Assembly: GCA_964551135.1 (NCBI GenBank)
Contig: CAZKAT010000003.1
Coordinates: 1,514 to 65,513 of the forward strand
Length of the DNA: 64,000 nt
Direction: 5' to 3'
From: an uncultured Gammaproteobacteria bacterium
GTDB taxonomy: Bacteria; Cyanobacteriota; Vampirovibrionia; LMEP-6097
Shown: positions 4,514 through 55,212 of the stretch, piece after piece
Layout: each line of letters begins with the position of its first letter
Numbering within the stretch: position 1 is the stretch's first letter
Made by a program: the position numbers and the translations under genes
The notes under the pieces: model-generated
What the model saw: the letters and a program-made list of their open reading frames with translations, nothing else
Databases searched by the model: none
What the model was told of the DNA's origin: nothing

Positions 4514-5093
4514 TTGGCAACCCAAAAACTCTACGGAAATAATTTAGCAGAGGTTTAATCATATTTCCTTGCTCTAATTTACTAAAACCAATAATTTCGG
4601 CTGAATTAATAGATCCTTTCGGATATTTTTTATCAGCATCACTTGCAGTTAATACTGCTGGATCTTTAATTTCGTTAACTCCATATGCCGTTGTCTCAGT
4701 ACTGGTATAATTACCAGTAATCAGAGAAATTAAAAAATTATTCCAACCTGTTACTGTCTGCTCTACTTTTGTTTTAAATTCTTGCATTACCTTAACCGTG
4801 TCATTAAAAGTAGGTCCTAACATGTGACCATCAGAGCATACCAAGATATTAGTATTATTCATTGTATCTTTTTCTTTTGCATGCAAAGCATCTAAACCTA
4901 CTCTCAATTCTTCTGGATTGTTGCATTGAATAATATTATCCTTTTCAAATATCCCTGCACCCTTACAATGTTGATTAAGACCCCAGCGACATATTGGCTC
5001 ATCATCTACAATAAAACAATAATTTTTAACAGCGCCCATATCCAAGATAATATCATCTGCGCTATAAAAAAGCAACTGTAACCATTGCCACAA
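4497..5093 (-). CDS. Hypothetical protein, 3' segment of a frame interrupted by an in-frame TAA
   Basis: 198-aa ORF in the same frame and directly contiguous with ORF 5094..5618; the track start is a TTG immediately after the TAA stop; first ATG is at codon 19. No family recognised. Confidence 0.35.
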   Translation of the reverse strand: MWQWLQLLFYSADDIILDMGAVKNYCFIVDDEPICRWGLNQHCKGAGIFEKDNIIQCNNPEELRVGLDALHAKEKDTMNNTNILVCSDGHMLGPTFNDTVKVMQEFKTKVEQTVTGWNNFLISLITGNYTSTETTAYGVNEIKDPAVLTASDADKKYPKGSINSAEIIGFSKLEQGNMIKPLLNYFRRVFGLPITTQS

Positions 5094-5618
5094 TTATTTA
5101 AATAATTCATTGCACTTAGCTAATAATTTAGGTATTGCTACATGCCAAGTGCCAACTCCTCTGAAAATCTTAAATGGGTTTAAACCATTATTTATAGGTA
5201 AAGTTTCTATACCATCAACAGAATCTGCTTTTGGGATTTTTTCTGCACTTCCAGAATGTAATACAGAGAGGTATGAGCCATTATGTTCACTACTCCATTT
5301 TTCCAAAATTGGGTTGATAGCACTTGGATATTGATTTGATATTACTAATAGTTTATTACAATCTCTTTGTTGTTCAAGAATACTAGATAATTCATTAAGA
5401 TCAGAGACCGTCTGAACATCTAAATCCTTAATACCTTGATCATTTGCACTAGATTTTAGGCTACGTTTTGTTATAGGTAGTCCAGATTTGTAATTGTCAC
5501 AATAAATAACATCAAATTTAGCCATGATATAGATAATAGCATTTGTGCTATAAAAAGAGCAAGTGTCTACAATTGCCGCCATTATTACTGCCCCGGGAAA
5601 CGCCGCTGTATCTATCAT
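5094..5618 (-). CDS. Hypothetical protein, 5' segment of a frame interrupted by an in-frame TAA
   Basis: 174-aa ORF from ATG 5618; alternative ATG at 5525 (MAKFDV...) would avoid the 56-nt antisense overlap with the mnmE start. No family recognised. Confidence 0.35.
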   Translation of the reverse strand: MIDTAAFPGAVIMAAIVDTCSFYSTNAIIYIMAKFDVIYCDNYKSGLPITKRSLKSSANDQGIKDLDVQTVSDLNELSSILEQQRDCNKLLVISNQYPSAINPILEKWSSEHNGSYLSVLHSGSAEKIPKADSVDGIETLPINNGLNPFKIFRGVGTWHVAIPKLLAKCNELFK

Positions 5619-6876
5619 TAAGATCAGTGGTGAGCAGAGCTGGGCTATAGTCTCGTCATTGCGAGGAGATGATAAATTAACTCATCGTCATATAGAAATC
5701 TCATGGATACAAGATGGCGAGAATAAAATAGATCAAGTACTAATTCTTCCTTTCAAAGCACCATATAGTTATACAGGCGAAGATCTAATAGAAATCCATT
5801 CTCATGGTGGCATGTGGATTACCGAGAGAATTTTAAAATTAATTTTAGAAGCAGGAGCTAAGCTAGCTAAGCCTGGGGAGTTCACTGAGAGAGCGTTTCT
5901 AAATCACAAGCTAGATCTATCACAAGCAGAAGCGATCTTAGATATAATTCAAGCGCGCAGCGGTAAGGCTGGCGAAAATGCAATTAAACTTTATCAAGGT
6001 TATTTAGGCAATGCGATTAAAGAGATGCGCCTAACATTACTAAATCTCTTAGGAGAACTTACTGCTTGCATAGACTTCCCAGATGAGGTTGCTGACTACG
6101 ATATAGAGAAATATCAAAAACAAATAGCTAAACAAATACAAAAGATCGAAGAATTACTTGCAGGTGAAGAAGAGGGGCATATACTACGCGAAGGTTACAA
6201 AGTAGCAATAGTAGGTAATCCAAATACTGGTAAATCTACCTTGCTCAATACTCTACTGAAAAAAGAGCGAGCAATAGTTACAGATATACCAGGGACTACT
6301 AGAGATCTAATTGAAGAATCTTATAGTATTAAGGGTCTACCACTGATTCTTCTAGATACTGCAGGAATTCGCAATAGCTCAGACCGCGTAGAACAGATCG
6401 GCATGGAACGCAGTCAGAGAGCCATAGAAGAAGCAGATCTAGTTTTAGTTCTCAAAGAAGCGCAAGACTCAAGTCCTAATACTCAAGGCTCATTATTAGA
6501 TGTAAGTTTCAAATCTAAAAATCATTTAGTGATAGGAACCAAGTTAGATTTATATTCAAATGACAATCATAATGGCTTTGATATTTGTATTTCTTCTAAG
6601 ACTGGAACTAATATAGAAGAGCTTAAGGAATTAATATACTCACGTATCATACATGGCAGTAGCCAAAATCAAGTAAAGATTAATCACAGGCAAGCTGATC
6701 TGTTGCGTAAAGCTCAAGCTGCACTAGAGCACTCTATGAGCTCAACTCACTTAGCAATAGACTTCTGGACTATAGACCTGCGCGCTGCTATCGCTGCACT
6801 CGGTGAGATTACTGGTGAGTCGTTGACAGAAGAATTACTCGACAATATCTTCTCGAGGTTTTGTATTGGGAAATAA
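5563..6876 (+). CDS. mnmE: tRNA modification GTPase MnmE (TrmE)
   Basis: 437 aa; N-terminal TIAAIITAPGNAAVSIIKISG, G-domain P-loop GNPNTGKSTLLN and DTAGIR, C-terminal CIGK tetrapeptide typical of MnmE; GTG start. Confidence 0.9.
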   Translation: MSTIAAIITAPGNAAVSIIKISGEQSWAIVSSLRGDDKLTHRHIEISWIQDGENKIDQVLILPFKAPYSYTGEDLIEIHSHGGMWITERILKLILEAGAKLAKPGEFTERAFLNHKLDLSQAEAILDIIQARSGKAGENAIKLYQGYLGNAIKEMRLTLLNLLGELTACIDFPDEVADYDIEKYQKQIAKQIQKIEELLAGEEEGHILREGYKVAIVGNPNTGKSTLLNTLLKKERAIVTDIPGTTRDLIEESYSIKGLPLILLDTAGIRNSSDRVEQIGMERSQRAIEEADLVLVLKEAQDSSPNTQGSLLDVSFKSKNHLVIGTKLDLYSNDNHNGFDICISSKTGTNIEELKELIYSRIIHGSSQNQVKINHRQADLLRKAQAALEHSMSSTHLAIDFWTIDLRAAIAALGEITGESLTEELLDNIFSRFCIGK

Positions 6877-7449
6877 TAAAGCAACTTCTCTCATAAATTT
6901 ATCTACAAATGTAGCTATTGTTGGTATTCCTTGATTTAATCCCAATACAGAAGTATTTCTCTTCCTTGCATGAAAAGCAGAAGCTCTGTCTCTTATAACT
7001 TGATCCAGAGGATCAGTAGGATTAACTTTTGGAAATAACAGTTGATTTCGTATCGCCCAATCTCCAACAGTAAAATTTGGACTAATTTTCACAATAGCAA
7101 ATCTGTCAGTAGCTTTATATAAAGTTTCAAGAAGTTTATGATAAGTCTGAGACCAATCAGCACGTCTTCCTCCTCCAGTATTTTCTACTGCTTCCTCATC
7201 AACAAAAACTAAAACTGGTGTATTTTTATCTTCTGACATATTTTGCCAAAAATTCCTATTCTCATCGAAGTAAGAAGTTTGAGTACTAGAACCTCTAGAA
7301 TAAACTACTTGATCTTGTCCTAAATTACGAATAGCATTATCAAACCAACCTGCTAATGCGGAATCAGAGAAAACAGCTATTCTCGGTGTCGCTGCTGTTG
7401 GCTTGAATTCTTTTGTTGATTCTGTTGTAATAGGTGCTGTTATAGTCAT
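6835..7449 (-). CDS. Hypothetical protein (possible SGNH/GDSL-like hydrolase fold)
   Basis: 204 aa; IAVFSDSALAG weakly resembles SGNH block I; other blocks not convincing. Convergent with mnmE, overlapping its 3' end by 42 nt. Confidence 0.3.
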   Translation of the reverse strand: MTITAPITTESTKEFKPTAATPRIAVFSDSALAGWFDNAIRNLGQDQVVYSRGSSTQTSYFDENRNFWQNMSEDKNTPVLVFVDEEAVENTGGGRRADWSQTYHKLLETLYKATDRFAIVKISPNFTVGDWAIRNQLLFPKVNPTDPLDQVIRDRASAFHARKRNTSVLGLNQGIPTIATFVDKFMREVALLFPNTKPREDIVE

Positions 7450-7485
7450 AATAAGATATTATATAATATTTCTTATCTAAATAAA

Positions 7486-7977
7486 ATGTCTATATGTAAT
7501 AATAACTGGAAAATGAACGATAGTAAACCAGAATTCTCAATTAAAAATATCGGTGATGCCAAACTTGCAATCATAGTCGCTAGCTGGAATAAACAATTCA
7601 ACATGGAGATGTACGAATCTGGACGCGAAGTTCTTGAGAAAGCAGGAATAAAAAAAATTGATCTTTACGAAGCACCAGGTGCTTTTGAAATACCATTAAT
7701 CGCACAAAAACTTGCTGAGAGTGGTAAATATACTGGCATTATTTGTTACGGCACAGTAGTTCGCGGTGATACTAGACATTTTAAGATAGTGGCTGATGAA
7801 AGTGCACGAGGAGTAATGGATGTAATGCTAAAAACTGGCATACCTGTACTTAACGGTATACTTGCCTGCGAAAACGCTGGACAAGCGGAATTCAGAGCTT
7901 CACGCAAGAAAGAAGACAAGGGTAAGGAAGTTGCGCTTTCGGCATTAAGTTTACTTAGTACTTTAGCCTCATTATAA
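7486..7977 (+). CDS. ribH: 6,7-dimethyl-8-ribityllumazine synthase
   Basis: 163 aa; AKLAIIVASWN and APGAFEIPL motifs typical of lumazine synthase; size matches. Confidence 0.8.
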   Translation: MSICNNNWKMNDSKPEFSIKNIGDAKLAIIVASWNKQFNMEMYESGREVLEKAGIKKIDLYEAPGAFEIPLIAQKLAESGKYTGIICYGTVVRGDTRHFKIVADESARGVMDVMLKTGIPVLNGILACENAGQAEFRASRKKEDKGKEVALSALSLLSTLASL

Positions 7978-7992
7978 ATCTAGACACCTAAC

Positions 7993-9108
7993 TTACTTAG
8001 ATTTATTTGAGTTCATTAATTCTGTAAACTGCTTAAATAAATAATCACTGTCATGCGGTCCAGGAGAGGCTTCTGGGTGGTATTGAACTGAGAATATATC
8101 AGGACGATCCTTCAAACGAATACCAGCGACAGTATCATCATTAATATTCAAATGTGTTATTTCGAGGTTATCTGGTAGATTCTCCTTGCTCACTGCAAAA
8201 CCATGATTATGAGAAGCTATCTCTATATTAGTTGAATCAAGATTCTTGATAGGTTGATTAGAACCACGATGTCCAAACTTAAGCTTGAAAGTTTTCGCTC
8301 CACAAGCAAGTGCTAGAATCTGATGCCCTAAGCAAATACCAAAGATTGGTTTGCGAAATTTCTCTATCAAGGTTTTAACAGTCTCTATTGCATAAGTTAC
8401 GGCAGCTGGATCTCCAGGACCGTTACTAAGGAAAACTCCATCTGGATTAGCTTGAAGAATATAATCTGCTGGCGTAGTAGCAGGCACTACTTCTACCTCA
8501 CAACCATGAGCGAGAAGCTGATTCAGAATGTTTTGCTTAATTCCAAAATCGTAAGCAATAACTTTATAACGCGGATTGATTGATGTAGCTCCCAGAGCAG
8601 TGCTAGAAGCTTGAAACTTCTCCTTACAACTCACTGTAGAAGCTAGGTCTAGACCACTCATCACTGATGAAGCACGAATTTGTTTCAATAATTCACTATT
8701 ACTAATAGTGTCATCACTGCAGATAGCTGCCCGCATTGCACCTTTATTACGTATATGTTTGGTGATAGCTCTAGTATCTACATCATGAATAGCAATGATG
8801 CCATGTTGTTTCAAAAAATCATCTAAAGTTTCTTGTGATTTATAGTTACTTGCTACTGGGCTATAGTTCTTCATTACCATTCCTTTAGCAAAAGAACCCC
8901 TAGACTCCATGTCTTCAGAATTACAACCATAGTTACCTATCTCTGGATAAGTAAAAATTATAATCTGACCAGCATAACTAGGGTCAGTCATAATTTCCTG
9001 ATATCCTGTCATCCCTGTATTAAAAACTATCTCACCAAAACGACTTCCACGAGATCCTAAACCCTTACCTCTAAACTCTCTACCGTCTTCTAGTAATAAA
9101 CGCGCCAT
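7993..9108 (-). CDS. carA: Carbamoyl-phosphate synthase small (glutamine amidotransferase) subunit
   Basis: 371 aa; CarA N-terminal domain followed by class I glutamine amidotransferase domain with GICLGHQ catalytic cysteine motif and HPE. Confidence 0.9.
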
Positions 9109-13611: not shown

Positions 13612-13813
13612 TTCACTGTATATAGACTTAGCTTTAAAAACAAGTTCAGAATCCATCGAAATCTCACCCGGCATAGTTGTTGACTATGATAAAGAAGGGG
13701 ATATCGTAGGTATCGATATAGATCAAGCTAGTACAAAAGTTGACATGTCTATTCTTGAAGCCGACTCACTACCATTTGGAAATTTATCAATTAAAAAAGA
13801 TACTGATGCTTAA
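13583..13813 (+). CDS. DUF2283-like small protein (putative antitoxin)
   Basis: 76 aa; MKFRYYQETDSLYIDL...GIVVDYDKEGDIVGIDID matches the DUF2283 consensus (MKIxYDxExDxLYI ... DxDxxGxIVGIEI). Confidence 0.55.
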   Translation: MKFRYYQETDSLYIDLALKTSSESIEISPGIVVDYDKEGDIVGIDIDQASTKVDMSILEADSLPFGNLSIKKDTDA

Positions 13814-14993
13814 GACTTCTAACTCAATTCTCAACAAAGCCCTAGAAGGCAAGTGCATTAGCGAAGCTGAGGCTGTAGAACTTTTCTATAAAGCTTCACC
13901 ACTAGATCTAGCTTATACCGCTAACGTATTGCGTGAGCGCAAACACGCTAACACTGAACCAACTACTTATGTAGTACAGCGCAATATTAATTACTCAAAT
14001 GTCTGCACTGCTAATTGCACTTTCTGTGCCTTTTATACACCACCATCTGATCCTAACCCTAAAAATCCCGCTTATGTTTTAGATTACGAAACACAAATGA
14101 AACCCAAGATAGAAGAATTAATCGCTATCAACGGCACAGAGATCTTACTACAAGGCGGTCACAATCCAGCTCTTGGCGTAGAATACTATACAGATTTATT
14201 CCAAAGAATTAAGCAAGATTTTCCTGGTATTACACTTCACGCTCTAAGTCCAGCAGAGATAATTCATATCACTGAGAAGAGAATTACTCCTGCAGAAGAT
14301 TATGGTGATGGTACTAATCGCAAGAGTATTAAAGCTCCTAATATGCAAGAGGTGAAAGAAACTTTACTCGCGCTTAAAGCAGCTGGCATGGATTCACTAC
14401 CAGGAGCAGGTGCTGAAGTATTAGTAGAATCTGTACGTAAGATTATTGCTCCGCTGAAGATTACTACTGAAACTTGGCTCAATGTTATGGAAACCGCTCA
14501 CAGTATAGGATTCCGTTCATCTGCAACTATGATGTACGGGCATGTGGAAACTTACGAAGATAGAGTAGAGCATTTCAGAACCTTGCGTGAATTACAAGAT
14601 CGTACTCACGGGTTCACGGCTTTCGTTACTTGGAACTTTCAACGCGGCGACACTCCGCTCGGTAAAATCATGGACTCAATGGAGAAACAAGGTAAATTGC
14701 CTGCTTATAACTCAAACTCTGGCGGCGAAGATTATTTACGTACTACTGCTATCGCTAGAATCTACTTAGATAATTTCGAGAATTTTCAAGCAAGCTGGGT
14801 AACTCAGGGGCATCAATTAGGACAAGTATCTCTTGCGTTTGGATGTAATGATTTAGGCGGTAATATGATGGAAGAGAACGTAGTCTCGGCTGCTAACACC
14901 ACTCATAAAGCCAGTGTTAATGAAATGCGCTACTATATTGAGGCTGCTGGCAAGCAAGCTCATCAGCGAGATACGCAGTATAATTTAGTTTGA
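13806..14993 (+). CDS. Radical SAM enzyme of the MqnC/MqnE/CofH family (probable futalosine-pathway menaquinone biosynthesis)
   Basis: CX3CX2C radical SAM motif (CTANCTFC); ILLQGGHNP, MMYGHVET...HGFTAFVTWNFQ and GCNDLGGNMMEENVVSAA blocks typical of this family. Start placed at ATG 13806 (MLKTSN...), which overlaps the upstream stop by 8 nt; the track start 13740 would overlap the upstream gene by 74 nt. Confidence 0.65.
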   Translation: MLKTSNSILNKALEGKCISEAEAVELFYKASPLDLAYTANVLRERKHANTEPTTYVVQRNINYSNVCTANCTFCAFYTPPSDPNPKNPAYVLDYETQMKPKIEELIAINGTEILLQGGHNPALGVEYYTDLFQRIKQDFPGITLHALSPAEIIHITEKRITPAEDYGDGTNRKSIKAPNMQEVKETLLALKAAGMDSLPGAGAEVLVESVRKIIAPLKITTETWLNVMETAHSIGFRSSATMMYGHVETYEDRVEHFRTLRELQDRTHGFTAFVTWNFQRGDTPLGKIMDSMEKQGKLPAYNSNSGGEDYLRTTAIARIYLDNFENFQASWVTQGHQLGQVSLAFGCNDLGGNMMEENVVSAANTTHKASVNEMRYYIEAAGKQAHQRDTQYNLV

Positions 14994-14994
14994 T

Positions 14995-16086
14995 ATGTAC
15001 CAAGGCACCATTCTTAAATATTCCGAGTACCTTTCTGTTGATAATCGCACACCGATTATTAGCATTAACGAAGGTCAGACTCCACTAGTACCAGCGCCGC
15101 ATATTGCCAAGCTCACTAGCGTACCAGGTCTGAAGGTTTATCTCAAAATAGAAGGACTCAATCCTACTGGTTCTTTTAAAGATCGTGGTATGACCATGGC
15201 TGTTTCTAAAGCTGTAGAAAAAGGTGCTAAGCGTATCATCTGTGCTAGCACTGGCAACACTTCCGCTTCAGCAGCAGCTTACGCAGCACGCGCTAGGGGA
15301 TTAGGTTACGAGCTAGATTGCTATGTGATTATTCCTGCAGGTTACGTTGCACTCGGCAAACTTTCTCAGGCAATGATTTATGGAGCGAAAGTTATACAGA
15401 TAGAAGGTAACTTCGATGCTGCTCTGAATATAGTAAAAGATCTTTCTAGTAACTATCCTATAGAGCTAGTGAACTCTATTAACCCTTATCGTATAGAAGG
15501 ACAGAAAACATCTGCTTATGAAATCTGTGACGAACTAGAAGCAGCTCCTGACTATCTCTGCATCCCCGTAGGTAATGCTGGTAACATTACCGCTTATTGG
15601 GCAGGTTTCAAGGACTATATCAAGAACCCAACAGCAAGACCTAAGATGTATGGCTTCCAAGCAGAAGGTGCAGCGCCAATAGTGAAAGGTCATATTATCG
15701 ATAAACCTGAAACAGTTGGAACAGCAATCCGCATCGGCAATCCAGCTAGCTGGAAACAAGCTGAAGCTGCGCGTGATGAATCTCAAGGACTTATAGACTC
15801 TGTTACTGATGATGAGATGCTTGAAGCTTACCGCATTATCCATGCTTCAGAAGGTTATGCTTGCGAACCTGCTTCTGCAGCGAGTGTCGCAGGTCTACTC
15901 AAAGCCGCTCGTCAAGGCAAGATCATTCCTGAATCTACCGTAGTCTGTGTGCTTACTGGTAACGGACTTAAAGATCCTAAGACTGCAATAGATCAGTCAG
16001 ATTTCAAATCAGCAGAGATAGTTTATAAAGCAGATATAAATGAGATAGCAAAAGCGCTATCGTTAGGTTCAGCATTGAAAGCTTAA
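14995..16086 (+). CDS. thrC: Threonine synthase
   Basis: 363 aa; PLP-lysine motif GSFKDRGMT and overall beta-family PLP enzyme layout matching threonine synthase. Confidence 0.85.
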   Translation: MYQGTILKYSEYLSVDNRTPIISINEGQTPLVPAPHIAKLTSVPGLKVYLKIEGLNPTGSFKDRGMTMAVSKAVEKGAKRIICASTGNTSASAAAYAARARGLGYELDCYVIIPAGYVALGKLSQAMIYGAKVIQIEGNFDAALNIVKDLSSNYPIELVNSINPYRIEGQKTSAYEICDELEAAPDYLCIPVGNAGNITAYWAGFKDYIKNPTARPKMYGFQAEGAAPIVKGHIIDKPETVGTAIRIGNPASWKQAEAARDESQGLIDSVTDDEMLEAYRIIHASEGYACEPASAASVAGLLKAARQGKIIPESTVVCVLTGNGLKDPKTAIDQSDFKSAEIVYKADINEIAKALSLGSALKA

Positions 16087-16090
16087 TCTT

Positions 16091-16888
16091 TTAAAACAGC
16101 AATAAAAATATTGCCAAAACCACCCGGTAGACAATAAAGCCCATTAAATTGTGGTTTTTGAGGAATTTGATCATGAAATCTATAGCTAAATAGCCAACAA
16201 TAAAACTTGTTATAAATCCCAAAAATAAGGGAATAATACTAGAATCAGAGTTTAATCCACCTTCAGCTAAATCTTTTAGTGCTAATAATCCTGCGCCGGC
16301 CACTGCAGGCAAACCTACCAAAAACGAAAATCTTGCAGCAGAGTCTCTACTTAGACCAGTAAATAAACCTGCAGATATAGTTGATCCAGAACGTGATACT
16401 CCTGGGAAAAGTGCAAGTGTTTGCATTAGACCCACGAAAAATATTTCTTTAATTGATAGATCTTCTATAGGCTTGTGTTCTTGACGCTTCTTAGTAAAAG
16501 CATCAGCACAGTACATCAAGACTGAACCGAGTAATAGAGTTATAACTATAGACATAGTAGACCTAATCATCTCAGATCCCCAGAACGCCTTGAAGCCAAA
16601 ACCAATAGCTATCACTGGTATAGTCGCTATCAAAATACCGATAGCAAGTTTACGTTCTGTAGGATTGTTAGAGATGAAACTCTTAAACATCACCAATACT
16701 TCCTTACGAAAATAAATTAGCGTTGCTGCAAGAGTTCCTAAATGCAAGAAAGCATCTACATCTAAGCCTGGGTCACAAAAGCCACAAAGCTTAGGAGCTA
16801 TTACTAAGTGAGCCGAGCTACTAATAGGTAAGAATTCTGTGAGTCCTTGGATAACAGCAAGTATAATTATTTCAATATATTTTTCCAT
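16091..16888 (-). CDS. uppP: Undecaprenyl-diphosphate phosphatase
   Basis: 265 aa polytopic membrane protein; N-terminal GLTEFLPISSSAHL motif characteristic of UppP/BacA. Confidence 0.85.
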   Translation of the reverse strand: MEKYIEIIILAVIQGLTEFLPISSSAHLVIAPKLCGFCDPGLDVDAFLHLGTLAATLIYFRKEVLVMFKSFISNNPTERKLAIGILIATIPVIAIGFGFKAFWGSEMIRSTMSIVITLLLGSVLMYCADAFTKKRQEHKPIEDLSIKEIFFVGLMQTLALFPGVSRSGSTISAGLFTGLSRDSAARFSFLVGLPAVAGAGLLALKDLAEGGLNSDSSIIPLFLGFITSFIVGYLAIDFMIKFLKNHNLMGFIVYRVVLAIFLLLF

Positions 16889-21304: not shown

Positions 21305-22051
21305 TTATTTAGTTAGCTTAATCGCTTGTGTAAGTCTCCAAAGAAATATCTTCTTATGGTCTCCTTGTTCTAATACTTTCGGCACCTTCTCTCCTCTGAA
21401 GTCCGCTGGGCGAGTGTAATGGGGATATTCGGATAATTTTAAATTCTCTAAATCTTCTTTCTTTAGTCCGGTCTCATCAAGTAATGCTTGTAGTTCTCTC
21501 TTAGTAACTTGCAGCTCTTCTAGTTTCTTTAAATAATTTATTTCAGAATGGGTTTCTTCTTCGATACTAGTCTCGTCTCCTAACACTCCCGGGATATGGC
21601 GTAAAGTAGCATCGATAATAGTCAGCGCCGGCAACTCACCACCAGTGAGCACATAATCACCAACCGAGACTTCCATAGTCGCTCTATCTCTAATCCTCTG
21701 ATCAAAGCCTTCATAACGTCCACATAAAATTATCAGATGTTCTTTCTTTGATAATTCTTGAGCAAGTCTTTGATCAAACTTTCTGCCAGAAGGACTAGTA
21801 ACTATGATCTCAGCCTTAGCATAATTAGGAATAGCTTCCAAACAATCTATCATTGGCTGGCATTGTAAGACCATTCCAGCACCACCACCATAAGGAGTAT
21901 CATCTACACGCTTGTGCTTATCCTTAGTATAGTCACGAGGATTGTGCACATAAAGTTCATAGAGCTTTTGCACTTGAGCTATACCCAAGATACTTGCTTC
22001 ACAGTAGCTAGTGACCATATCTGGAAACAAACTTAGTACATCAATTCTCAT
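21305..22051 (-). CDS. trmD: tRNA (guanine37-N1)-methyltransferase
   Basis: 248 aa; MRIDVLSLFPDM N-terminus, YGGGAGMV and C-terminal YPHYTRPADFRG...VP motifs typical of TrmD. Confidence 0.9.
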   Translation of the reverse strand: MRIDVLSLFPDMVTSYCEASILGIAQVQKLYELYVHNPRDYTKDKHKRVDDTPYGGGAGMVLQCQPMIDCLEAIPNYAKAEIIVTSPSGRKFDQRLAQELSKKEHLIILCGRYEGFDQRIRDRATMEVSVGDYVLTGGELPALTIIDATLRHIPGVLGDETSIEEETHSEINYLKKLEELQVTKRELQALLDETGLKKEDLENLKLSEYPHYTRPADFRGEKVPKVLEQGDHKKIFLWRLTQAIKLTK

Positions 22052-22055
22052 ATAC

Positions 22056-23180
22056 CTATAGATCCAAGAGCTCAGTGATAAGTTTAATCTTAGAAGATCT
22101 AAGATACTTAGCTCTAAAAGAGACCTGTATCAAATCTTCTAATCTATCTTGATTAAGTTTCTCAGTAAAAATCACTTTCTTAAAGCTAGCGAGCAAGAAA
22201 TCATATTTCATTTCTTTTTTGGTCATTCTTTGTAAATGTGCCTGAATCAAGCTTATAGACTCTGCTTGATTAGTTTGAAGATATTTAAGTACTTGATCTT
22301 GTTCTTTCACAAAATTATCTACTAGATCTTTATTTATCTCATAGAACTCGCTATCTACAACCAGTAGTGTAGTAGGAAACTTATTAATAAATTTCAATTG
22401 ATCAAAAATAAACGCATTCTCACTACCTTCTAATTCTTCTATGACACCATAAGGTGGTCTTTCAGCCAGCTCTGTTACATTAATCATGCCTTTAGAAGTA
22501 AGTAAAGTACCCCAAGGCTCAGCAACTAAAGCAGCATCTATAGAGCCAGTGAAGAATGCCATCTCTAACTCAGCAGGGTGTATCGGAATATATTGCAATT
22601 TTTTATCAAATGATATTAACGGTAACTCCATTAATGACTGGATCTGAGGATGAGAAGCATCATATCTCTTAGCTTGATCTTGCAAACGATTCACCAGAAT
22701 CTTAGCTAGCAAATCTTGAGTATTACCCCACTGCGGCACTGCGATCTTCTTAACATTGAAACCCTTATCAGGTTCATAGTAGCTAGGTAATATCAAACTA
22801 TTACCACCAATGCAGCTAAGCTTAAGTAACTTGAGTTTCACGCCTTTACTGAGAGCATTAATATATGGACCAGGACCTATATAACCTAAATCCAGATTAT
22901 GAGTTAGAAGTGCATCTAATAAATAACCACCCGAGGTAAATGATAATGACTTTGTCTTCGTGAACTTACCAGCTTCCAAACCCACTATAGGGACAGCATG
23001 CGTCATATTCAGTAAATAACCTAGGCGTAATTTATCAACCTTAGTCACTTGCATGCGCTTAGAGCATGACGTTAGAAATAAGGATAGACCTATAATCAGC
23101 ACGAAGGTAGGTGCCGTCATCCTGAGGAGCCTGCGAAGCAGGCGACGTAAGGATCCACTTATACTAAAGTTTTTCTCCAT
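22056..23180 (-). CDS. Substrate-binding lipoprotein, NMT1/SsuA-like (ABC transporter periplasmic component)
   Basis: Lipoprotein signal with lipobox LTSC; body resembles NMT1/THI5/SsuA-type binding proteins. Start set at ATG 23180 (MEKNF...); alternatives are 23120 and the track start 23330. The N-terminal region overlaps palindromic element A. Confidence 0.5.
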   Translation of the reverse strand: MEKNFSISGSLRRLLRRLLRMTAPTFVLIIGLSLFLTSCSKRMQVTKVDKLRLGYLLNMTHAVPIVGLEAGKFTKTKSLSFTSGGYLLDALLTHNLDLGYIGPGPYINALSKGVKLKLLKLSCIGGNSLILPSYYEPDKGFNVKKIAVPQWGNTQDLLAKILVNRLQDQAKRYDASHPQIQSLMELPLISFDKKLQYIPIHPAELEMAFFTGSIDAALVAEPWGTLLTSKGMINVTELAERPPYGVIEELEGSENAFIFDQLKFINKFPTTLLVVDSEFYEINKDLVDNFVKEQDQVLKYLQTNQAESISLIQAHLQRMTKKEMKYDFLLASFKKVIFTEKLNQDRLEDLIQVSFRAKYLRSSKIKLITELLDL

Positions 23181-23226
23181 TATAGTGGATCCTGACGGTC
23201 GGGCTTCGCCCTCCCTCAGGATGACG
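23115..23226. repeat. GC-rich palindromic element A (RPE-like), 112 bp
   Basis: Perfect 13-bp terminal inverted repeat CGTCATCCTGAGG (23115-23127) / CCTCAGGATGACG (23214-23226) plus inner inverted GGATCCACT/AGTGGATCC; GC-rich island in AT-rich DNA; related to elements at 39469-39577 and 41697-41797. Confidence 0.75.
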
Positions 23227-23262
23227 ATTTTCGACTTACGTTTATGCTTATGCATTACTTTG

Positions 23263-23941
23263 TTACTTTGCTTTCTTGTTGTTATGATTCCAAGACTTAA
23301 CACCAGAAGTTTTAATAGAAACCACTGCACCAGGCTTACCTGAAACTGGTCCCTTAACTAATAAAAGTCTTTGCTCTGGGTCATACTTAACTACTTTCAC
23401 TTTAGTGATAGTTACTACATTGTCACCCATTCTTGCAGGCATGCGCTTACCAGGAAACACACGACCTGGAGTTGTACCAGCACCAAGTGAACCAATGATA
23501 CGCTTAGATTTAGAACCGTGACTACGTCTACCAACTCTCATGTTATAGAGCTTAATACCACTCTGAAACCCTTTACCAATCGAAGTGCTAGTAATATTAA
23601 CTTTCTCAAGATCTTTGAAAAAATCTTCAGCATTAACTGCATCCCCAATATTCACACCTTCGATATTCTCGTTAGTTCTAAATTCTTGTAACTTAGATAA
23701 ACTTGGTAAATTTTTCTTTTGTAAATTTCCTCTTTCAGGTTTAGTTAAAAGTGTGTCTCTCTTCTTGAAAGCTCCAAGTTGAAGCGCATAATAACCATCA
23801 CGCTCTTTAGTTTTAATATCAGTTATGATGTTCTCTGCAATCTGAATAACTGTTACTGGTACTACGTCACCCTCAGCATCAAAGACTTGAGTCATGCCTA
23901 GTTTCTTACCGATTAATCCGAAATCTTTAGTTGTTGTTGCC
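23263..23941 (-). CDS. rplC: 50S ribosomal protein L3
   Basis: Start at ATG 23941 (MATTTKDFGLIGKKLGMTQVF) preceded by AGGAGA RBS; conserved L3 blocks KGFQSG, HGS, PGRVFPGKRM; the track start 24000 adds 19 non-conserved residues. Confidence 0.85.
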
Positions 23942-24147
23942 ATAATTTTCTCCTGTTTTTTTATTAGACTTTGTTTCACATTAGAGTAATTCCGAGACAA
24001 GTCTATCTATACAAGGCCCTAATAAATTAAGACCTACACCTAAGCACAGTATTCTATGGCTAGAACCTTCATGCATAAGGCGTAAGGCTAGATTCTAGCA
24101 ATTGAAGATGCCTAAGTATTATTAAGAAAAGATTCAACAATAGTATC

Positions 24148-24209: not shown

Positions 24210-25925
24210 ATGACAAGAATTCCTCGAACAACTCCCGACAGATCATTTCGCCCTATAATTCCAGGACATTATCATAGTCGCAGTTATATTACTTCCACTG
24301 AGGATACTTTTCTAAATTATGATGATTACACTCCACGAATAAGACCTGTCGTTATTAGTCATGATTTTAAACCTCAACGAACAATTGAAATAAACAATGC
24401 TCAATCTAGACAAAAAATTAAGCATCAAATTTACAAAGCCTTAGTAAAGGAAAAGGTTAAAGACGATGCATTAATAGCAATATCTGAAGTTCACGGTGGC
24501 ACAAATAGCTCTCTTATTTACTCAGGTATCAAAGATCCTACAAAACCTGCCGAAACTTTACACTCTCTTCAATTTAAATTAAAGGGTGATCATCCTGAGC
24601 ACGATATTTCTATCGCCAGGGACATTATTGGACAAGTTGGACGCCAAGCTAAGAACTGTGGAGATCTATTTGGTGAACTCTGTGTTGCAAGCTGGCATAA
24701 AGGCGGTAAAGCAGATATTGCTAATGATGATGCTTCAGACTGGAAACACAAGCCAGGCTATTGGGCACATGTCAATCGTGCAATTGTTGATAGAGCTAAA
24801 GATTACGGTAAAAACGAACCATATAGTTTTGGAGAAGCTACTCAAAGTCGATTCGATGACCATTCATTAAACTTACATTCTAGTGTCACTAACGGTCCAG
24901 ATGGAACCCATCACTTATCAGCTAAAAATAAGCAAGGTATTGCTAGAAGGTATCACTCCAATATACAAAACGATGGTAGCTATGGACTCCAGTCATTTAG
25001 AGACTTATATGGAATACCAAAAGAAGAAACCATTGCAACTTTAATTTATGGTTCTGGTTATAACACCAATATCGGGCAGGGAAATATGATTGTTAATACC
25101 GAGAATGGACATATCACCAGGAAAACTTGTCCTGCATTACAGCAAGACTGGGATCAATATGGTCAATTTTTAGAACTGCAGAGAGTTGGTTCTAGCCAAG
25201 AGTTTGGTAATCTTGAAAGACATGAATTAATAGTCGCTGGAGGTAATACTGATAATCAATATGCTGGTCCTAAATTAGCAGCAAACAATATTATCAACTC
25301 AATTACTGAAGACTTAGCTCGTGATGGACAAGCTTCTGCAGTTACAAGTCAAATGTTGAAACTATTAGGGATTAGCTTTGAAGATGCTAAAGTAAGTGAT
25401 TTAATTGATATTAAACGAGAAAGAAATATTGACAATCCAGATATAGATAGAAGTATTCTTACTAATTACAATGACGGAACAGTGTCCCAGAAAGGCTTAC
25501 TGGCACTGAAAATATATGAAAACTTAGCTCATAGAGCTGGAACTATACTTGCTAAATTCTTCGATGACAGTCAAGTTAAGAAGGAACAAGAATTAACTAT
25601 TGATTTTAGAAAAGCAACTAAGATCGGTATCATTGGAAGCCAAGGCAAAGGAATGTATGATAGGAAAATGCCACCATCAATTCTAGGAAATTTCGTTAAT
25701 GCTCTCAATCAAGTTAGACCTAACAATCCATTATATGCAAACGATGTAATAATTCATGCACCGATACAAGACGGTGCCTATGCTGCAGCTCTAGCAAGAT
25801 TAGGAATTCAAATGCGATCATCTGACATTCAAGTTTCTAGCAACATAGATTCTGAAACTGAAGTTGCTAACACTATTAGAGGAGGAGGGTTTAGAGGTGT
25901 GAAGCATCTTGCACAAACTTCTTAA
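24210..25925 (+). CDS. Hypothetical protein (571 aa), no recognisable family
   Basis: Long ORF with a promoter-like element upstream; no motif recognised by eye. Confidence 0.45.
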   Translation: MTRIPRTTPDRSFRPIIPGHYHSRSYITSTEDTFLNYDDYTPRIRPVVISHDFKPQRTIEINNAQSRQKIKHQIYKALVKEKVKDDALIAISEVHGGTNSSLIYSGIKDPTKPAETLHSLQFKLKGDHPEHDISIARDIIGQVGRQAKNCGDLFGELCVASWHKGGKADIANDDASDWKHKPGYWAHVNRAIVDRAKDYGKNEPYSFGEATQSRFDDHSLNLHSSVTNGPDGTHHLSAKNKQGIARRYHSNIQNDGSYGLQSFRDLYGIPKEETIATLIYGSGYNTNIGQGNMIVNTENGHITRKTCPALQQDWDQYGQFLELQRVGSSQEFGNLERHELIVAGGNTDNQYAGPKLAANNIINSITEDLARDGQASAVTSQMLKLLGISFEDAKVSDLIDIKRERNIDNPDIDRSILTNYNDGTVSQKGLLALKIYENLAHRAGTILAKFFDDSQVKKEQELTIDFRKATKIGIIGSQGKGMYDRKMPPSILGNFVNALNQVRPNNPLYANDVIIHAPIQDGAYAAALARLGIQMRSSDIQVSSNIDSETEVANTIRGGGFRGVKHLAQTS

Positions 25926-25927
25926 GC

Positions 25928-27355
25928 TCAAGAATATAAGAGACGCGCCATAGCCATCTTACCTTCTAATACATCGATAAGACCATCCATAGCACCACGA
26001 TCATGCTTGAGAATTTTTAGATCGTTTAAACCATGTTTAGCTCTAAATTTTTGAATAGTACCGATAAACGCATTTTCTCCACCAGGTACTTCTAAAATAC
26101 CATGTAGTAAATGAGATCCGACCATAGCAAACGCAGTAGTCTTAGAGTTTTTCAAGAAATCTGCAAATTTAGTTATAGTAAAGTTTGCCGAACGCTCTGC
26201 TAGAGACAGAGTTAGAGCTAATGCTAAAGAATCACCTTTCTTAGCTTCTTTTTCTATCTCCTCTGCTTTATCTTTTATAGCTAAATCTGGTGAACTTACA
26301 ATTTGAAGTATTTTAGGATTATATTCAATAAAATTAGGAGAACCTAATGTCCCAACTGTTAATTTATGAGTACCATTTATAATAGATATGGCTAACTGTT
26401 TCTCCACTGGCAGATATTTATTCAAGTGTAATAGAACATTTGGAATATTTAGCATGTTCTCTCTTGTAGTTGCATTTTCCAATATCGATTTCAAAGTTTG
26501 ACATTGTCTAACTAATGATCCACCAGCAAGAACCTCTTCTGTATTAAGATCTTTATTTGCTCCTTCATAAATTGCATCTAAAGGAGATTTAAATTTATAG
26601 ATAGATTGATTAGCTTCTGTATTAGGAAGTGGGGGCTGACCTGATTCTGTGTTTTGGGTTCTTCTGAACTGACCAGTCCTAGTGTCATAATCTTCACCAA
26701 TACCTAAATTAAATCCAGTACCATCTACTAGACCAAGTGCGTTTTCACCTTCTTTAAGATGTTGGCCAGCACTAGCTGCAATCGCAACAGTATCGTTTAA
26801 TACAGTAGCTCTTAATCCAGTTTCAGTATCTAAATTACTAATACAATCAATATGATCATTCATTGCTTCATCTCGGTAACTAAGACTGATCTCAGCTCCA
26901 TTAGCTATGTCTCTCATATCACCTAAGGCATCCCAATTAAGTCCTGCCTTATCATTAGCGTTAGCCATGTATATATGTCCTTCTTCTGGGACTTGTGAAC
27001 ATAGTTGATTCAAGGCAACATTCTCTTTTGCATTAGTCGCATATCCTGCTACACCAAAGACTAGATCCATTATTGGTTGACTGACTGCTTTAGCTTGCTT
27101 GACGCAAGTTGCAAGTATCTCCTTCACTACTTTTAAGTCAGCCGTATGGTTAGCTATCGTTGACTTTGATCTCTCAGCTTTGATATCAATATGAATTGGA
27201 TCTTTATGCAAACCTGAAACTGCCATATCAACGCCACTACCACCAACTCTAACTACTGCAGCAAGAGGCTGTTTAGACTCAATAGATTGAGACTGAAGCC
27301 AGTTTGTCCAGTCTGCCGAACTAGTAATATTTACATCTGTAGTATTCATTGCCAT
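25928..27355 (-). CDS. Hypothetical protein (475 aa), possibly actin-like ATPase / sugar-kinase fold
   Basis: Gly-rich segments VVRVGGSGVDMAV and LGLVDGTGFNLGIG loosely resemble phosphate-binding loops of ASKHA-superfamily kinases; assignment weak. Confidence 0.3.
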   Translation of the reverse strand: MAMNTTDVNITSSADWTNWLQSQSIESKQPLAAVVRVGGSGVDMAVSGLHKDPIHIDIKAERSKSTIANHTADLKVVKEILATCVKQAKAVSQPIMDLVFGVAGYATNAKENVALNQLCSQVPEEGHIYMANANDKAGLNWDALGDMRDIANGAEISLSYRDEAMNDHIDCISNLDTETGLRATVLNDTVAIAASAGQHLKEGENALGLVDGTGFNLGIGEDYDTRTGQFRRTQNTESGQPPLPNTEANQSIYKFKSPLDAIYEGANKDLNTEEVLAGGSLVRQCQTLKSILENATTRENMLNIPNVLLHLNKYLPVEKQLAISIINGTHKLTVGTLGSPNFIEYNPKILQIVSSPDLAIKDKAEEIEKEAKKGDSLALALTLSLAERSANFTITKFADFLKNSKTTAFAMVGSHLLHGILEVPGGENAFIGTIQKFRAKHGLNDLKILKHDRGAMDGLIDVLEGKMAMARLLYS

Positions 27356-39468: not shown

Positions 39469-39577
39469 CGTCATCGCGAGGAGCGAGCGCAGCGAGTGAC
39501 GTCGCGATCCAGACGAATGCACAATATTTATGACTGGATCCCGACGTCGTCCACTTCGTGGACTCCTCGGGATGACG
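39469..39577. repeat. GC-rich palindromic element B (RPE-like), 109 bp
   Basis: Terminal inverted repeats CGTCATCGCGAGGAG (39469-39483) / CTCCTCGGGATGACG (39563-39577) and inner GGATCCAG/CTGGATCC; same family as element A; sits between gatB and nfi, and the nfi ORF terminates inside it. Confidence 0.75.
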
Positions 39578-40326: not shown

Positions 40327-41124
40327 ATGCTTGGAATCTATATCACCGCTGGCTACCCAAATACTCAGAGCACTATTAAAGCTCTCAAAATTCTTGACGA
40401 GGCTAATGTTGATTTAATAGAACTTGGAGTTCCTTTCTCTGATCCTTTAGCTGACGGTCCAGTAATTCAAAAAGCTGCATATCAAGCACTGCAGCAAGGC
40501 ATGAACCTGGATAAAATTTTTGCTCTATTAGAAGAAGCTCGCAGCCAAGGTATCAAGGCAAGTTCAGGCAAAGGCTTAAACAATGTAATCTTGTTCTCCT
40601 ACTATAATCCACTCTATGCTTATGGCTGGGATAAGTTAATCAAACAATGTCAAGCACATCAAATACGCGGCGCACTAATTCCTGACTTACCTGTAGATGA
40701 AGCAGAAGTTCTATCTAAAAAATTTAAAGATGCTGGATTAGATTTAATTCTACTAGCAGCTATAACCAGTACTGATGAGCGCTTGCGTAAGATCTATGAT
40801 CTATCATCACCATTTATTTACTTAGTTAGCCGCATTGGTATCACTGGAAGCGACAGTGATGTTCAATCCTTGAAAGGTAACAGCTCTACTAGCGTTGACC
40901 GTCCGCTCTCAAGTGTTATTAGCAAGCTTAAGTCTTTTGGTAATAAGCCTATTGCTTTAGGTTTTGGTATAGATTCACGCACCAAAGTAGAAGATGCTTA
41001 TAAGACAGGAGCAGATATGGCAATAGTAGGAACCAAGGCGGTAAGAGTGCTTGAAGCCTGCGATGAAAGCTTGAATTGTTTTAAAGAATTTATTAAAGCT
41101 CTAAGAGCACCAGTAGAGGTATAA
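40327..41124 (+). CDS. trpA: Tryptophan synthase alpha chain
   Basis: 265 aa; ELGVPFSDPLADGPVIQ signature; no trpB adjacent. Confidence 0.85.
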   Translation: MLGIYITAGYPNTQSTIKALKILDEANVDLIELGVPFSDPLADGPVIQKAAYQALQQGMNLDKIFALLEEARSQGIKASSGKGLNNVILFSYYNPLYAYGWDKLIKQCQAHQIRGALIPDLPVDEAEVLSKKFKDAGLDLILLAAITSTDERLRKIYDLSSPFIYLVSRIGITGSDSDVQSLKGNSSTSVDRPLSSVISKLKSFGNKPIALGFGIDSRTKVEDAYKTGADMAIVGTKAVRVLEACDESLNCFKEFIKALRAPVEV

Positions 41125-41696: not shown

Positions 41697-41797
41697 ACGC
41701 AGTTATTTTGTCATTATTCGAGGCAGTTTGCTCCTGAGCGACCGGAGTGTATATGAACATACATGAGGATCGCGAAGGAGCAAACTAACGAAGAAGA
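41697..41797. repeat. Palindromic element E (about 100 bp), upstream of ssrA
   Basis: Imperfect inverted repeat TTTTGTCATTATTCGAGGCAGTTTGCTCCTGAGCGA / TCGCGAAGGAGCAAACTAACGAAGAAGAATGACAAAAG; termini resemble the GTCAT...GAGG ends of elements A and B. Confidence 0.6.
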
Positions 41798-41823
41798 ATG
41801 ACAAAAGAACAAGTCTTCTTTAT

Positions 41824-42228
41824 GGGGGCGTATAGCTTTGACAGGGGTCAGAGATGGTAAAACGCGAGTCCAGGTAGCCTAGGTCCTGGTAAAGCCAAGG
41901 CAAAACATAAGTGTAAATGAATTTGAAGTAACTGTAGCGCAAGCTACACCTGCTGAGCGTTTCGCTCAAGCAGCTTAGTCCCGACATACTGCGGACACTT
42001 CCTCGCTGCTTAACGGCTAACCGGTTAGGATTGTGAGGCACTAAACAGGTCAGTGCATGAATCATACTTTGATAAGTTTAGTATGAGGAGTAAAGATCAT
42101 AAGCTTAGAACCCGTTGAGTGTCTATGCTCTTAAGCACGGCAACAGCTTAGATTTATAGACTACACTCGTAGTGGTTTATCGTTGAAAACTTTTGGACGC
42201 GAGGGGCAGTTCCTCGCCGCCTCCACCA
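41824..42228 (+). ncRNA. ssrA: tmRNA (transfer-messenger RNA), standard one-piece form
   Basis: 5' GGGGGCG pairs with 3' CGCCUCC (7-bp acceptor stem with G3:U70 alanine identity pair) followed by encoded ACCA; 5' GGGGGCGUAUAGCUUUGACAGGGG resembles the tmRNA tRNA-like domain; T-arm GCGAGG/CCUCGC; internal open frame ending ...AQATPAERFAQAA then UAG, consistent with an Ala-Ala-terminated tag. The overlapping 81-aa minus-strand ORF is considered spurious. Confidence 0.75.
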
Positions 42229-55201: not shown

Positions 55202-55212
55202 AGGAGAAAGAT

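Follow-up and report, generated by a model that had tools for sequence, protein, structure and literature searches.

A conserved rplC-lipoprotein-trmD gene order and its covarying 5' leader RNA in a lineage of Vampirovibrionia

Introduction

How does the gene of a core ribosomal protein come to stand between hypothetical genes and a lipoprotein gene, away from the other ribosomal genes? In the 64,000-nt stretch of contig CAZKAT010000003.1 analysed here (the window), rplC, which encodes ribosomal protein uL3 (L3), is followed by the gene of a substrate-binding lipoprotein (SBP) and then by trmD, rather than lying in the rpsJ-rplC-rplD and rpsP-rimM-trmD-rplS contexts of Escherichia coli. An initial annotation, made from the sequence alone, took this order, a palindromic element between rplC and the SBP gene, and a trpA gene lacking trpB as signs of extensive genome rearrangement, plausibly mediated by the repeat elements. 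We find that the odd order is an old, stable trait of the lineage and not a recent scramble. Taken together, the locus is probably an old conserved operon into which repeats came later, with a promoter and a covarying RNA leader ahead of it. The features at issue are these.

24092-24100, minus strand: putative extended -10 promoter box of the rplC operon, TGCTAGAAT (TGnTAnnWT), from its sequence pattern
24041-24078, minus strand: structured 5' leader RNA motif, from conservation and covariation
23944-24040, minus strand: remaining rplC 5' untranslated region (UTR), with two more hairpins, an A-rich stretch and the Shine-Dalgarno sequence AGGAG
23263-23943, minus strand: rplC (50S ribosomal protein uL3, 226 aa), TIGR03625
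23115-23226, unstranded: nested-palindrome repeat of 112 nt in the rplC-SBP spacer, from its inverted repeats
22056-23120/23180, minus strand: SsuA/TauA/NMT1-type substrate-binding lipoprotein gene (SBP), PF13379
21305-22051, minus strand: trmD (tRNA m1G37 methyltransferase, 248 aa), TIGR00088 and NF000648
16902-21197, minus strand: gene of a collagen-like/repeat protein of 1431 aa, between trmD and uppP
16091-16888, minus strand: uppP/bacA (undecaprenyl-diphosphatase), ancestral fourth gene of the block, TIGR00753

The gene order is an old trait of its lineage

Family models confirmed the proposed identities of rplC, the binding lipoprotein gene and trmD. The rplC product matches TIGR03625 with 226.4 bits (cut-off 142.9) over model positions 1-202 of 202, that is, at full length; the other two genes are treated below. 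The segment first delimited, which ended at 23941, does contain rplC, although 23941 is the third base of its ATG (23943-23941) and the gene starts at 23943. The palindromic element between rplC and the SBP gene is real as well, and the remark that ribosomal neighbours are missing holds: gene calls with Pfam marks gave no other ribosomal-protein gene in the window or in the ~8-10 kb beyond either end.

The closest named homologues of L3, SBP and TrmD come from metagenome-assembled genomes (MAGs) of 'Candidatus Melainabacteria' and 'Candidatus Caenarcaniphilales', and we place the source genome, a MAG from a non-photosynthetic relative of cyanobacteria, in the Caenarcaniphilales/Caenarcanales group of Vampirovibrionia (Melainabacteria). 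In ENA the window forms part of a metagenomic contig of 288 kb (ERZ3430527 NODE_13). (In the copy of the NCBI taxonomy used here the name Caenarcaniphilales is gone, and Candidatus Caenarcanales, class Vampirovibriophyceae, is listed.) Several related MAGs from study SRP150892 (L003-L005 and L007-L009; L-numbers denote loci of related or outgroup genomes compared with the window) are labelled 'uncultured Gammaproteobacteria bacterium', while their L3, SBP and TrmD sequences and their synteny point to Melainabacteria/Caenarcanales; the label is evidently a taxonomy error in the records.

We compared the window with 13 relatives of its clade (L003-L011, L090, L098, L101 and L105) and with loci from a motif-seeded genome scan, which used one genome per GTDB species and kept the 80 best L3 loci, down to 44% identity. 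The rplC-SBP pair was present in 13/13 sampled relatives, over L3 identities of 56-92% and SBP identities down to ~37%. The longer order rplC-SBP-trmD was found in the window and in L003, L004, L005, L008, L009, L010, L011, L098, L101 and L105; the contigs of L006 and L007 end inside or just past these genes. When searched with the window proteins (tblastn), nine GTDB-species genomes (L3 62-92% identical) showed the same order as far as their contigs reach, within a collinear block that runs mutS-(adenine glycosylase)-4HBT-[variable hypothetical genes]-rplC-SBP-trmD-uppP-thrC-mqnC-pgm, and the ~20-kb neighbourhood is collinear in most relatives. The additional members L098 (L3 61%), L101 (56%) and L105 (64%) all carry rplC-SBP-trmD(-uppP), and L098 keeps this core even though its outer flanking genes differ. 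Because ENA, NCBI and Logan assemblies, made independently, show it too, the order is not an assembly artefact. Indirect support for linkage also came from 90%-identity clusters, in which at least 21 L3/SBP and at least 24 L3/TrmD pairs match in the size of their longest contig, some of these contigs being 2-5 kb long.

Such collinearity across genomes, with a core that persists where the outer flanks change, speaks against extensive genome rearrangement. The comparison with relatives that the initial annotation had suggested thus returned the conserved ancestral arrangement for the lineage, which by that annotation's own terms is the outcome that overturns it. For genome scans in general the case is a caution, in that standing out of E. 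coli context does not equal recent rearrangement.

The genes are also tightly packed. Between the L3 stop and the SBP start there is overlap or a gap of at most 12 nt in L005, L007, L009, L010, L011 and L090, the SBP stop and trmD start overlap (by ATGA, or by 11 nt) in L005, L008, L010 and L011, and in the window trmD begins 4 nt past the SBP stop codon. We found no terminator-like sites inside the block, and its packing appears operon-like. The next gene in the ancestral order is uppP (TIGR00753, 239.8 bits against 217.5), which directly follows trmD in L003, L004, L005, L008-L010, L098 and L105, as well as in L094 and L095, and which comes after trmD in every clade genome that has trmD and enough sequence. 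Between the two, the window alone carries the 1431-aa gene, which is absent there in the close relatives L003 and L004 and in all other clade loci and is a strain-specific insertion; its product has a collagen-like Gly-X-Y stretch and long internal repeats, and no Pfam match.

One relative, L090 (GCA_013216135), has rplC-SBP with no trmD after it, so that the linkage to trmD is not universal in the clade. In that genome six genes (3040-8868) take the place of trmD-uppP, one of them encoding an AAA_10 (conjugation-type ATPase) protein, and the segment could be a mobile-element insertion or replacement. Conversely, the Melainabacteria contigs L094 and L095 have trmD-uppP behind a different upstream gene (Fic or a Na/sulfate symporter) and lack rplC-SBP; each of the two units, rplC-SBP and trmD-uppP, thus appears to predate the junction between them.

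Just upstream of the rplC promoter region, at 24210-27355, lie two genes without a family match (571 aa, plus strand; 475 aa, minus strand). This is the variable spot of the neighbourhood: the genes show 67% and 55% identity in close relatives, they are duplicated in L004, and elsewhere they are absent or different.

rplC left the ribosomal cluster once

In the window and its relatives, rplC has hypothetical genes upstream and SBP(-trmD) downstream, and the flanks of the S10 operon (rpsJ on one side, rplD-rplW-rplB on the other) are not found. The outgroup Vampirovibrionia L012, L013 and L082, whose L3 proteins are closer to other groups than to the clade, retain (tuf)-rpsJ-rplC-rplD-rplW-rplB-..., and the displacement of rplC is therefore a derived state. 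Together with the order in the clade, this shows that rplC left the rpsJ-rplC-rplD cluster once, in the clade ancestor, and that the new order has been retained since. The observation that rplC lies out of its usual context thus stands, as an old and fixed trait rather than a recent event.

Could the stand-alone rplC instead be an extra copy, paralogous or horizontally acquired, with a canonical rpsJ-rplC-rplD copy elsewhere in these genomes? The clade L3 proteins do sit on a long branch, none of them sharing more than 54% identity with an L3 from elsewhere, and the rpsJ/rplD locus of the clade was never seen. The scan, however, was seeded with the motif MTQVFDAE, through which it reached the L3 of outgroup Vampirovibrionia and cyanobacteria, with loci kept down to 44% identity, and yet among its 80 best hits each of 9 clade genomes had a single L3 locus. 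The protein is moreover a full-length, equivalog-level uL3, and the nearest named homologues of the window's L3 are from Melainabacteria/Caenarcaniphilales, then from other Melainabacteria and then from cyanobacteria, as vertical descent predicts. We accordingly consider an extra copy improbable and retain the relocation of the clade's own rplC.

Such a relocation is uncommon. The gene order of the S10-type cluster is among the most conserved in bacteria, and a clean loss of one internal gene, rplC, is for that reason unusual. That it became fixed, across deep divergence, next to genes for a tRNA methyltransferase, a lipoprotein and a cell-wall lipid phosphatase gives a neat example of an operon being rebuilt.

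Palindromic repeats came later and did not create the order

The element in the rplC-SBP spacer is built of nested inverted repeats, the terminal one (CGTCATCCTGAGG) at 23115-23127 and 23214-23226 and the inner one at 23146-23159 and 23184-23197. Its family has two full copies in the window, the second of them as listed here, and a solo end near 5654.

39469-39577, unstranded: palindromic repeat, second copy, at the nfi/gatB junction

The reading put forward initially, of a recent and extensive rearrangement mediated by repeats that mark its breakpoints, draws on the position of one copy between rplC and the SBP gene and of another near trpA, and on the mobility of the family, whose copies stand at differing sites in L003, L004, L008, L088, L096 and L097. 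The rplC-SBP spacer holds the whole palindrome in the window and in L003, half of it in L004 and none of it in L005 and beyond, with the gene order the same throughout; in L004 one more copy stands between SBP and trmD, where the window has none. At the second site, L096 has the same nfi-gatB order as the window, with the genes ~10 nt apart and no element between them. Because the repeats are present, partial or absent at orthologous spacers of unchanged order, they are later insertions: they went into short spacers between genes that run in the same direction, and they neither produced the gene order nor mark breakpoints. With the order kept down to 56% L3 identity and the whole 20-kb neighbourhood collinear in most relatives, rearrangement through these repeats is a very improbable account of the locus. 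The family has the hallmarks of repetitive extragenic palindromic (REP) or miniature inverted-repeat transposable element (MITE) families, namely multiple copies, terminal inverted repeats and variable presence at orthologous sites.

Although the insertions left the gene order as it was, they altered open reading frames (ORFs). Both candidate starts of the SBP gene lie inside the repeat, one (ATG 23180) centrally and the other (ATG 23120-23118) in the terminal repeat, and the element therefore donated the 5' end of this ORF; the start is probably at 23120, whereas 23180 opens the longest sensible ORF. At the other site, the repeat at 39469-39577 runs into two ORFs, nfi at its 3' end and the longest gatB ORF at its 5' end, and makes both longer than in L096, against which Nfi aligns only to residue 228 of 253 and GatB only from residue 24. 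For annotation, then, small palindromic repeats can supply start codons and ORF ends without altering gene order.

A putative promoter and a covarying leader precede rplC

While gene order alone is of modest interest, the leader upstream of the relocated gene is the part worth following up. In 12/13 clade genomes a TGnTAnnWT box stands 14-38 nt (mostly 21-23 nt) upstream of a conserved leader motif, against ~0.06 chance occurrences expected per 45 nt. The box is conserved, and it suggests that the relocated rplC has its own extended -10 promoter. With the box just upstream of the motif, the leader structure would lie at the very 5' end of the transcript. TACTGT, within the motif, was also considered as a -10 box and was rejected in favour of the conserved upstream TGnTAnnWT.

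Aligning the sequences upstream of rplC in the clade revealed invariant AUGAAG(G)...(U)UACUGU around a variable hairpin, and this motif occurs 7-101 nt upstream of rplC in 13/13 loci with enough upstream sequence. Its anatomy is an outer helix P1 (GCAU/GUGC), the invariant AUGAAG(G), the hairpin P2 (UUCUA GCCA UAGAA in the window) and (U)UACUGU. Unguided RNAalifold predicted P1 (4 bp) and P2 (4 bp), with compensatory double changes in 6/8 pairs and 94.8% of cells paired over 12 sequences; the covariation score was 0.765, compared with 0.319 for shuffles (0/500 reached 0.765) and no more than 0.237 in slid controls. A covariance model of the motif (R1), run over 795 kb that included the outgroups and many cyanobacteria, matched only upstream of clade rplC, and in three loci outside its training set it picked up the motif where this was expected (L098, 35 bits; L105, 26.8 bits; L101, 21.2 bits). 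The minimum free energy (MFE) fold of the window sequence contains P1, P2 and the two downstream hairpins, with the Shine-Dalgarno sequence unpaired (z = -2.1). No family in Rfam 15 matches the rplC leader in an E-value scan, and a gathering-threshold scan of the window gave a transfer-messenger RNA (tmRNA) as its sole match. Two features of ribosomal-protein leaders are thus present, a conserved 5' UTR element downstream of the putative promoter and a structure that is supported by covariation.

An alternative is that the motif acts as DNA, in an operator or promoter element, or codes for a short leader peptide (MK...), rather than acting as RNA structure. It does hold an invariant ATG-AAG, and TACTGT resembles a -10 hexamer. 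However, both helices keep their complementarity through the compensatory changes, something that neither a DNA site nor a peptide needs and that speaks against a DNA operator; an extended -10 box of much better conservation stands upstream; and no Shine-Dalgarno sequence precedes the ATG. Insertions and deletions in P2 also place TACTGT in differing frames relative to the ATG (21 nt lie between them in the window and 22 in L008), and a conserved leader peptide is ruled out, as the reading frame is not conserved. The probability that we attach to a DNA or peptide function is accordingly small, slightly smaller still than for an extra rplC copy, and we proceed with an RNA structure.

What the leader may sense

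L3 is the sole ribosomal protein that the operon encodes and hence the likeliest ligand, following the rule used for other leaders (the 'Only' basis in PMC7247131), by which the product of a lone ribosomal-protein gene in an operon is the favoured ligand. We therefore present the element as a candidate L3-responsive ribosomal leader, an assignment that we make tentatively and at somewhat below even chances. Neither Rfam 15 nor the ribosomal-leader surveys (PMC3616713, PMC7247131) contain a leader specific to L3. In the mechanism that we propose, surplus L3 would bind the internal loop AUGAAG(G)/(U)UACUGU between P1 and P2 and would lower translation or mRNA stability, as in ribosomal-protein autoregulation. 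The segment between motif and rplC ranges in length from 7 to 101 nt among clade genomes. In three lineages the 3' strand of P1 touches the Shine-Dalgarno sequence or runs into it (L090, L006 and L009, with 7, 11 and 24 nt to the ATG), and a bound protein could block initiation there; in the window another route would be needed, for example through mRNA stability or entrapment. The trmD, uppP and lipoprotein genes would ride on a growth-rate-coupled rplC promoter.

The structure may also be real and yet not sense L3, serving instead as a 5' stabiliser or processing site, or as the target of L4, of another RNA-binding protein or of a small molecule. This would fit a Shine-Dalgarno sequence that is distant and unpaired in the window's sub-lineage, as well as the lack of demonstrated rRNA mimicry and the control of the E. 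coli S10 operon by L4 and not L3 (PMC3616713). Set against it, rplD lies outside the operon, so that feedback by L4 would regulate a gene not its own; the unpaired nucleotides have stayed the same through deep divergence, a sign of sequence-specific recognition rather than of a generic stabilising hairpin; and ~0.8 Mb of related DNA holds no other occurrence of the motif. A leader that senses something other than L3 is, in our estimate, a little less probable than the L3 assignment, and L3 remains our working ligand. With one ribosomal-protein gene per operon, this assignment is directly testable.

Besides the missing trmD linkage in L090, several points weigh against the overall picture of a relocated, autoregulated operon. 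The case for a single rplC is indirect, as the rpsJ/rplD locus of the clade was not seen; the covariation rests on only 12-13 related sequences; and promoter, operon and ligand are all deduced from sequence. In the window's sub-lineage 97 nt separate the motif from the Shine-Dalgarno sequence downstream of it, which has no pairing partner in the MFE fold, and simple occlusion of the ribosome-binding site therefore cannot be the mechanism there. L3 binds domain VI of 23S rRNA (PMC1919493), and mimicry of rRNA was sought in E. coli 23S rRNA and in the Rfam consensus structure, from which the 23S rRNA of the host clade may differ. There R1 gave nothing convincing against the E. coli gene rrlH (best match 7.6 bits), and for UGAAGG...UACUA, at the 3' end of 23S (H99-H101 junction), the consensus does not show that pairing. 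A second candidate, AUGAAGG at 23S positions ~50-56 (H5/H6), was likewise rejected, its consensus structure not reproducing the leader pairing.

The lipoprotein and TrmD

The SBP matches PF13379 (NMT1_2) with 36.6 bits, and TIGR01728 with 89.6 bits, below the 163.5 cut-off and thus short of a family-level score. It has the lipobox LFLTSC, and a lipobox is present in every orthologue. An AlphaFold2 model (pLDDT 92.7) has the class-II periplasmic-binding-protein fold, and Foldseek aligned it with TauA (6ssy, E = 1.6e-14) and SsuA (2x26, TM-score 0.61/0.73; 3ksx), with TM-scores of about 0.6-0.7. A PDB sequence search was nearly empty, and the fold search returned only the generic neighbours SsuA, TauA, Thi5 and NrtA, which point to no particular ligand. 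We called no genes for an ATP-binding cassette (ABC) permease or ATPase near the SBP gene, either in the window and ~8-10 kb beyond it or in the loci of the relatives. The next-closest homologues are from other Melainabacteria, and one of them, the distant P0201, lies in an SBP-permease-ATPase operon beside mqn-like genes; the SBP gene of the clade is orphaned between rplC and trmD.

TrmD scores 276.8 bits with TIGR00088 (cut-off 195) and 278.5 with NF000648 (220), an equivalog-level match that takes in the SPOUT N-domain and the C-domain, and PDB TrmD chains match it at E ~1e-54 in two stretches, split by a linker insertion. This insertion, of ~36 aa at residues ~170-205, is charged and helical-looking, lies in the interdomain linker and sets the protein apart from all solved TrmD structures. 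The length of TrmD varies from 246 to 318 aa across the clade, and the insertion is therefore lineage-typical and variable. Beyond the clade, the 120 best TrmD matches come from unrelated phyla and say nothing useful about the trmD context of deeper outgroups.

The neighbours of trmD are SBP and the 1431-aa gene in the window and SBP and uppP in the relatives. No rpsP, rimM or rplS gene was found near it in either arrangement seen in Vampirovibrionia loci (that of the clade and that of L094 and L095), and the order rpsP-rimM-trmD-rplS does not occur there. The initial annotation was thus right about the missing partners of trmD, and less so in the contexts that it took as normal, as the next section sets out.

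trpA and other genes of the window

40327-41124, plus strand: trpA without adjacent trpB, TIGR00262

The trpA gene is genuine (TIGR00262, 216 bits against 102), and the initial annotation was correct that it lacks trpB: none was found near it in the window, where its neighbours are nfi/gatB and a GNAT gene, or in L096 and L097. The only PALP-fold gene in the window (14995-16086) was considered as trpB and rejected, as it is the threonine synthase gene thrC (TIGR00260, 308.8 bits). The context of trpA is itself conserved, however, with topA-hyp-gatB-nfi-trpA-GNAT in L096 (TrpA 79% identical; hyp, hypothetical gene) and gatB-trpA in L097 (64%), a gatB-(nfi)-trpA-GNAT order shared with relatives. 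The genes of the trp pathway and of the trmD operon are also dispersed in cyanobacteria such as Synechocystis. The trmD and trpA 'anomalies' exist only relative to E. coli, whose contexts are not the baseline for the phylum. Fully dispersed trp genes have been described for marine bacteria generally in a metagenome study, the main text of which does not mention cyanobacteria (PMC2395257).

Downstream of trpA-GNAT is a tmRNA gene (41824-42228, plus strand; Rfam, 93.6 bits), and the spacer before it (41702-41810) holds another pair of nested inverted repeats. An MqnC-like radical-SAM gene (13740-14993, plus strand) matches its NCBIfam model in two stretches with 406.9 bits, against a cut-off of 428.1; beside it are small DUF2283-type genes in the window and a HepT/MNT toxin-antitoxin pair in L105. 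Further along, at 51940-53257 (plus strand), an HTTM domain gene adjoins a gene with a domain like the lumenal domain of vitamin-K-dependent gamma-carboxylase. An EgtB-like (DinB_2 and FGE-sulfatase) and EgtD-like (Methyltransf_33) pair at 53867-56184 (plus strand) suggests, from its domains, a capacity for ergothioneine synthesis.

Comparison with known systems

REP/MITE-like palindromic repeats, exemplified by Rickettsia palindromic elements and neisserial Correia elements, resemble the family described here: its ~110-nt nested palindromes occur in many copies in spacers of co-directional genes, vary in presence between close relatives and can extend or supply ORF ends. The likeness to the Rickettsia and neisserial families is one of form, and no transposase or target-site duplication was identified. 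Among substrate-binding lipoproteins of the SsuA/TauA/NrtA type, the SBP shares the class-II fold, Pfam NMT1_2 and a lipoprotein signal; it differs in scoring below the SsuA family cut-off and in having no adjacent permease or ATPase gene, unlike P0201. As in the trmD operon of E. coli (rpsP-rimM-trmD-rplS), trmD here appears to share the promoter of a ribosomal-protein gene, although its partners are rplC, the lipoprotein gene and uppP.

The S10 operon of E. coli (rpsJ-rplC-rplD-rplW-rplB-...) likewise has rplC and a structured leader before a ribosomal-protein transcription unit, and is under autogenous control mediated by L4, not L3 (PMC3616713). In the clade, by contrast, rplC is without rpsJ and rplD, the genes downstream are non-ribosomal, L4 is not encoded in the unit, and the leader has no similarity to the L4 leader of E. 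coli (no Rfam match).

The nearest counterpart of the clade leader is the covarying structure reported upstream of rplC in most cyanobacteria (PMC12873609). We recovered it in L014-L079 as GGAUACUG-[hairpin]-YAAGUCC, that is, GGAU-AC-UG[hairpin]CA-A-GUCC, which covaries and lies ~250-290 nt upstream of the rplC start codon. It too is without an Rfam 15 family (a scan gave nothing credible), and we did not find it in the Gloeobacterales locus L027. The two leaders are alike in phylum-level group, in the gene downstream and in being a small hairpin with an internal loop, and by inspection the loop cores agree, with 5'-UACU-3' opposite 5'-AAG-3' and a U.G closing pair in both. They differ in that the strands of the cyanobacterial loop are swapped relative to the hairpin cap (permuted), in loop size (2x1, compared with 2x2 in the clade) and in what follows, a long rplC-rplD-... 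operon in cyanobacteria and rplC-SBP-trmD in the clade.

We also considered shared ancestry of the two leaders and rejected it. R1 does not match cyanobacteria; a model of 15 cyanobacterial leaders (R2), which scores 43-48 bits in cyanobacteria, finds nothing upstream of clade rplC; and neither matches the outgroup Vampirovibrionia or Gloeobacterales. What remains is a likeness of the loops, seen by inspection in a core of ~7 nt, and we regard it as a lead and not as a result. The boldest form of the argument, which is speculative and in our estimate has a rather low chance of being right, is that the clade leader is the first L3-responsive ribosomal-protein leader, that rplC moved away from rplD together with a loop resembling the cyanobacterial one, and that L3 regulates the S10-type operon across Cyanobacteriota/Melainabacteria. 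If true, the relocation would be a natural experiment pointing to L3 as the protein that exerts autogenous control over the S10-type operon, a role that belongs to L4 in E. coli.

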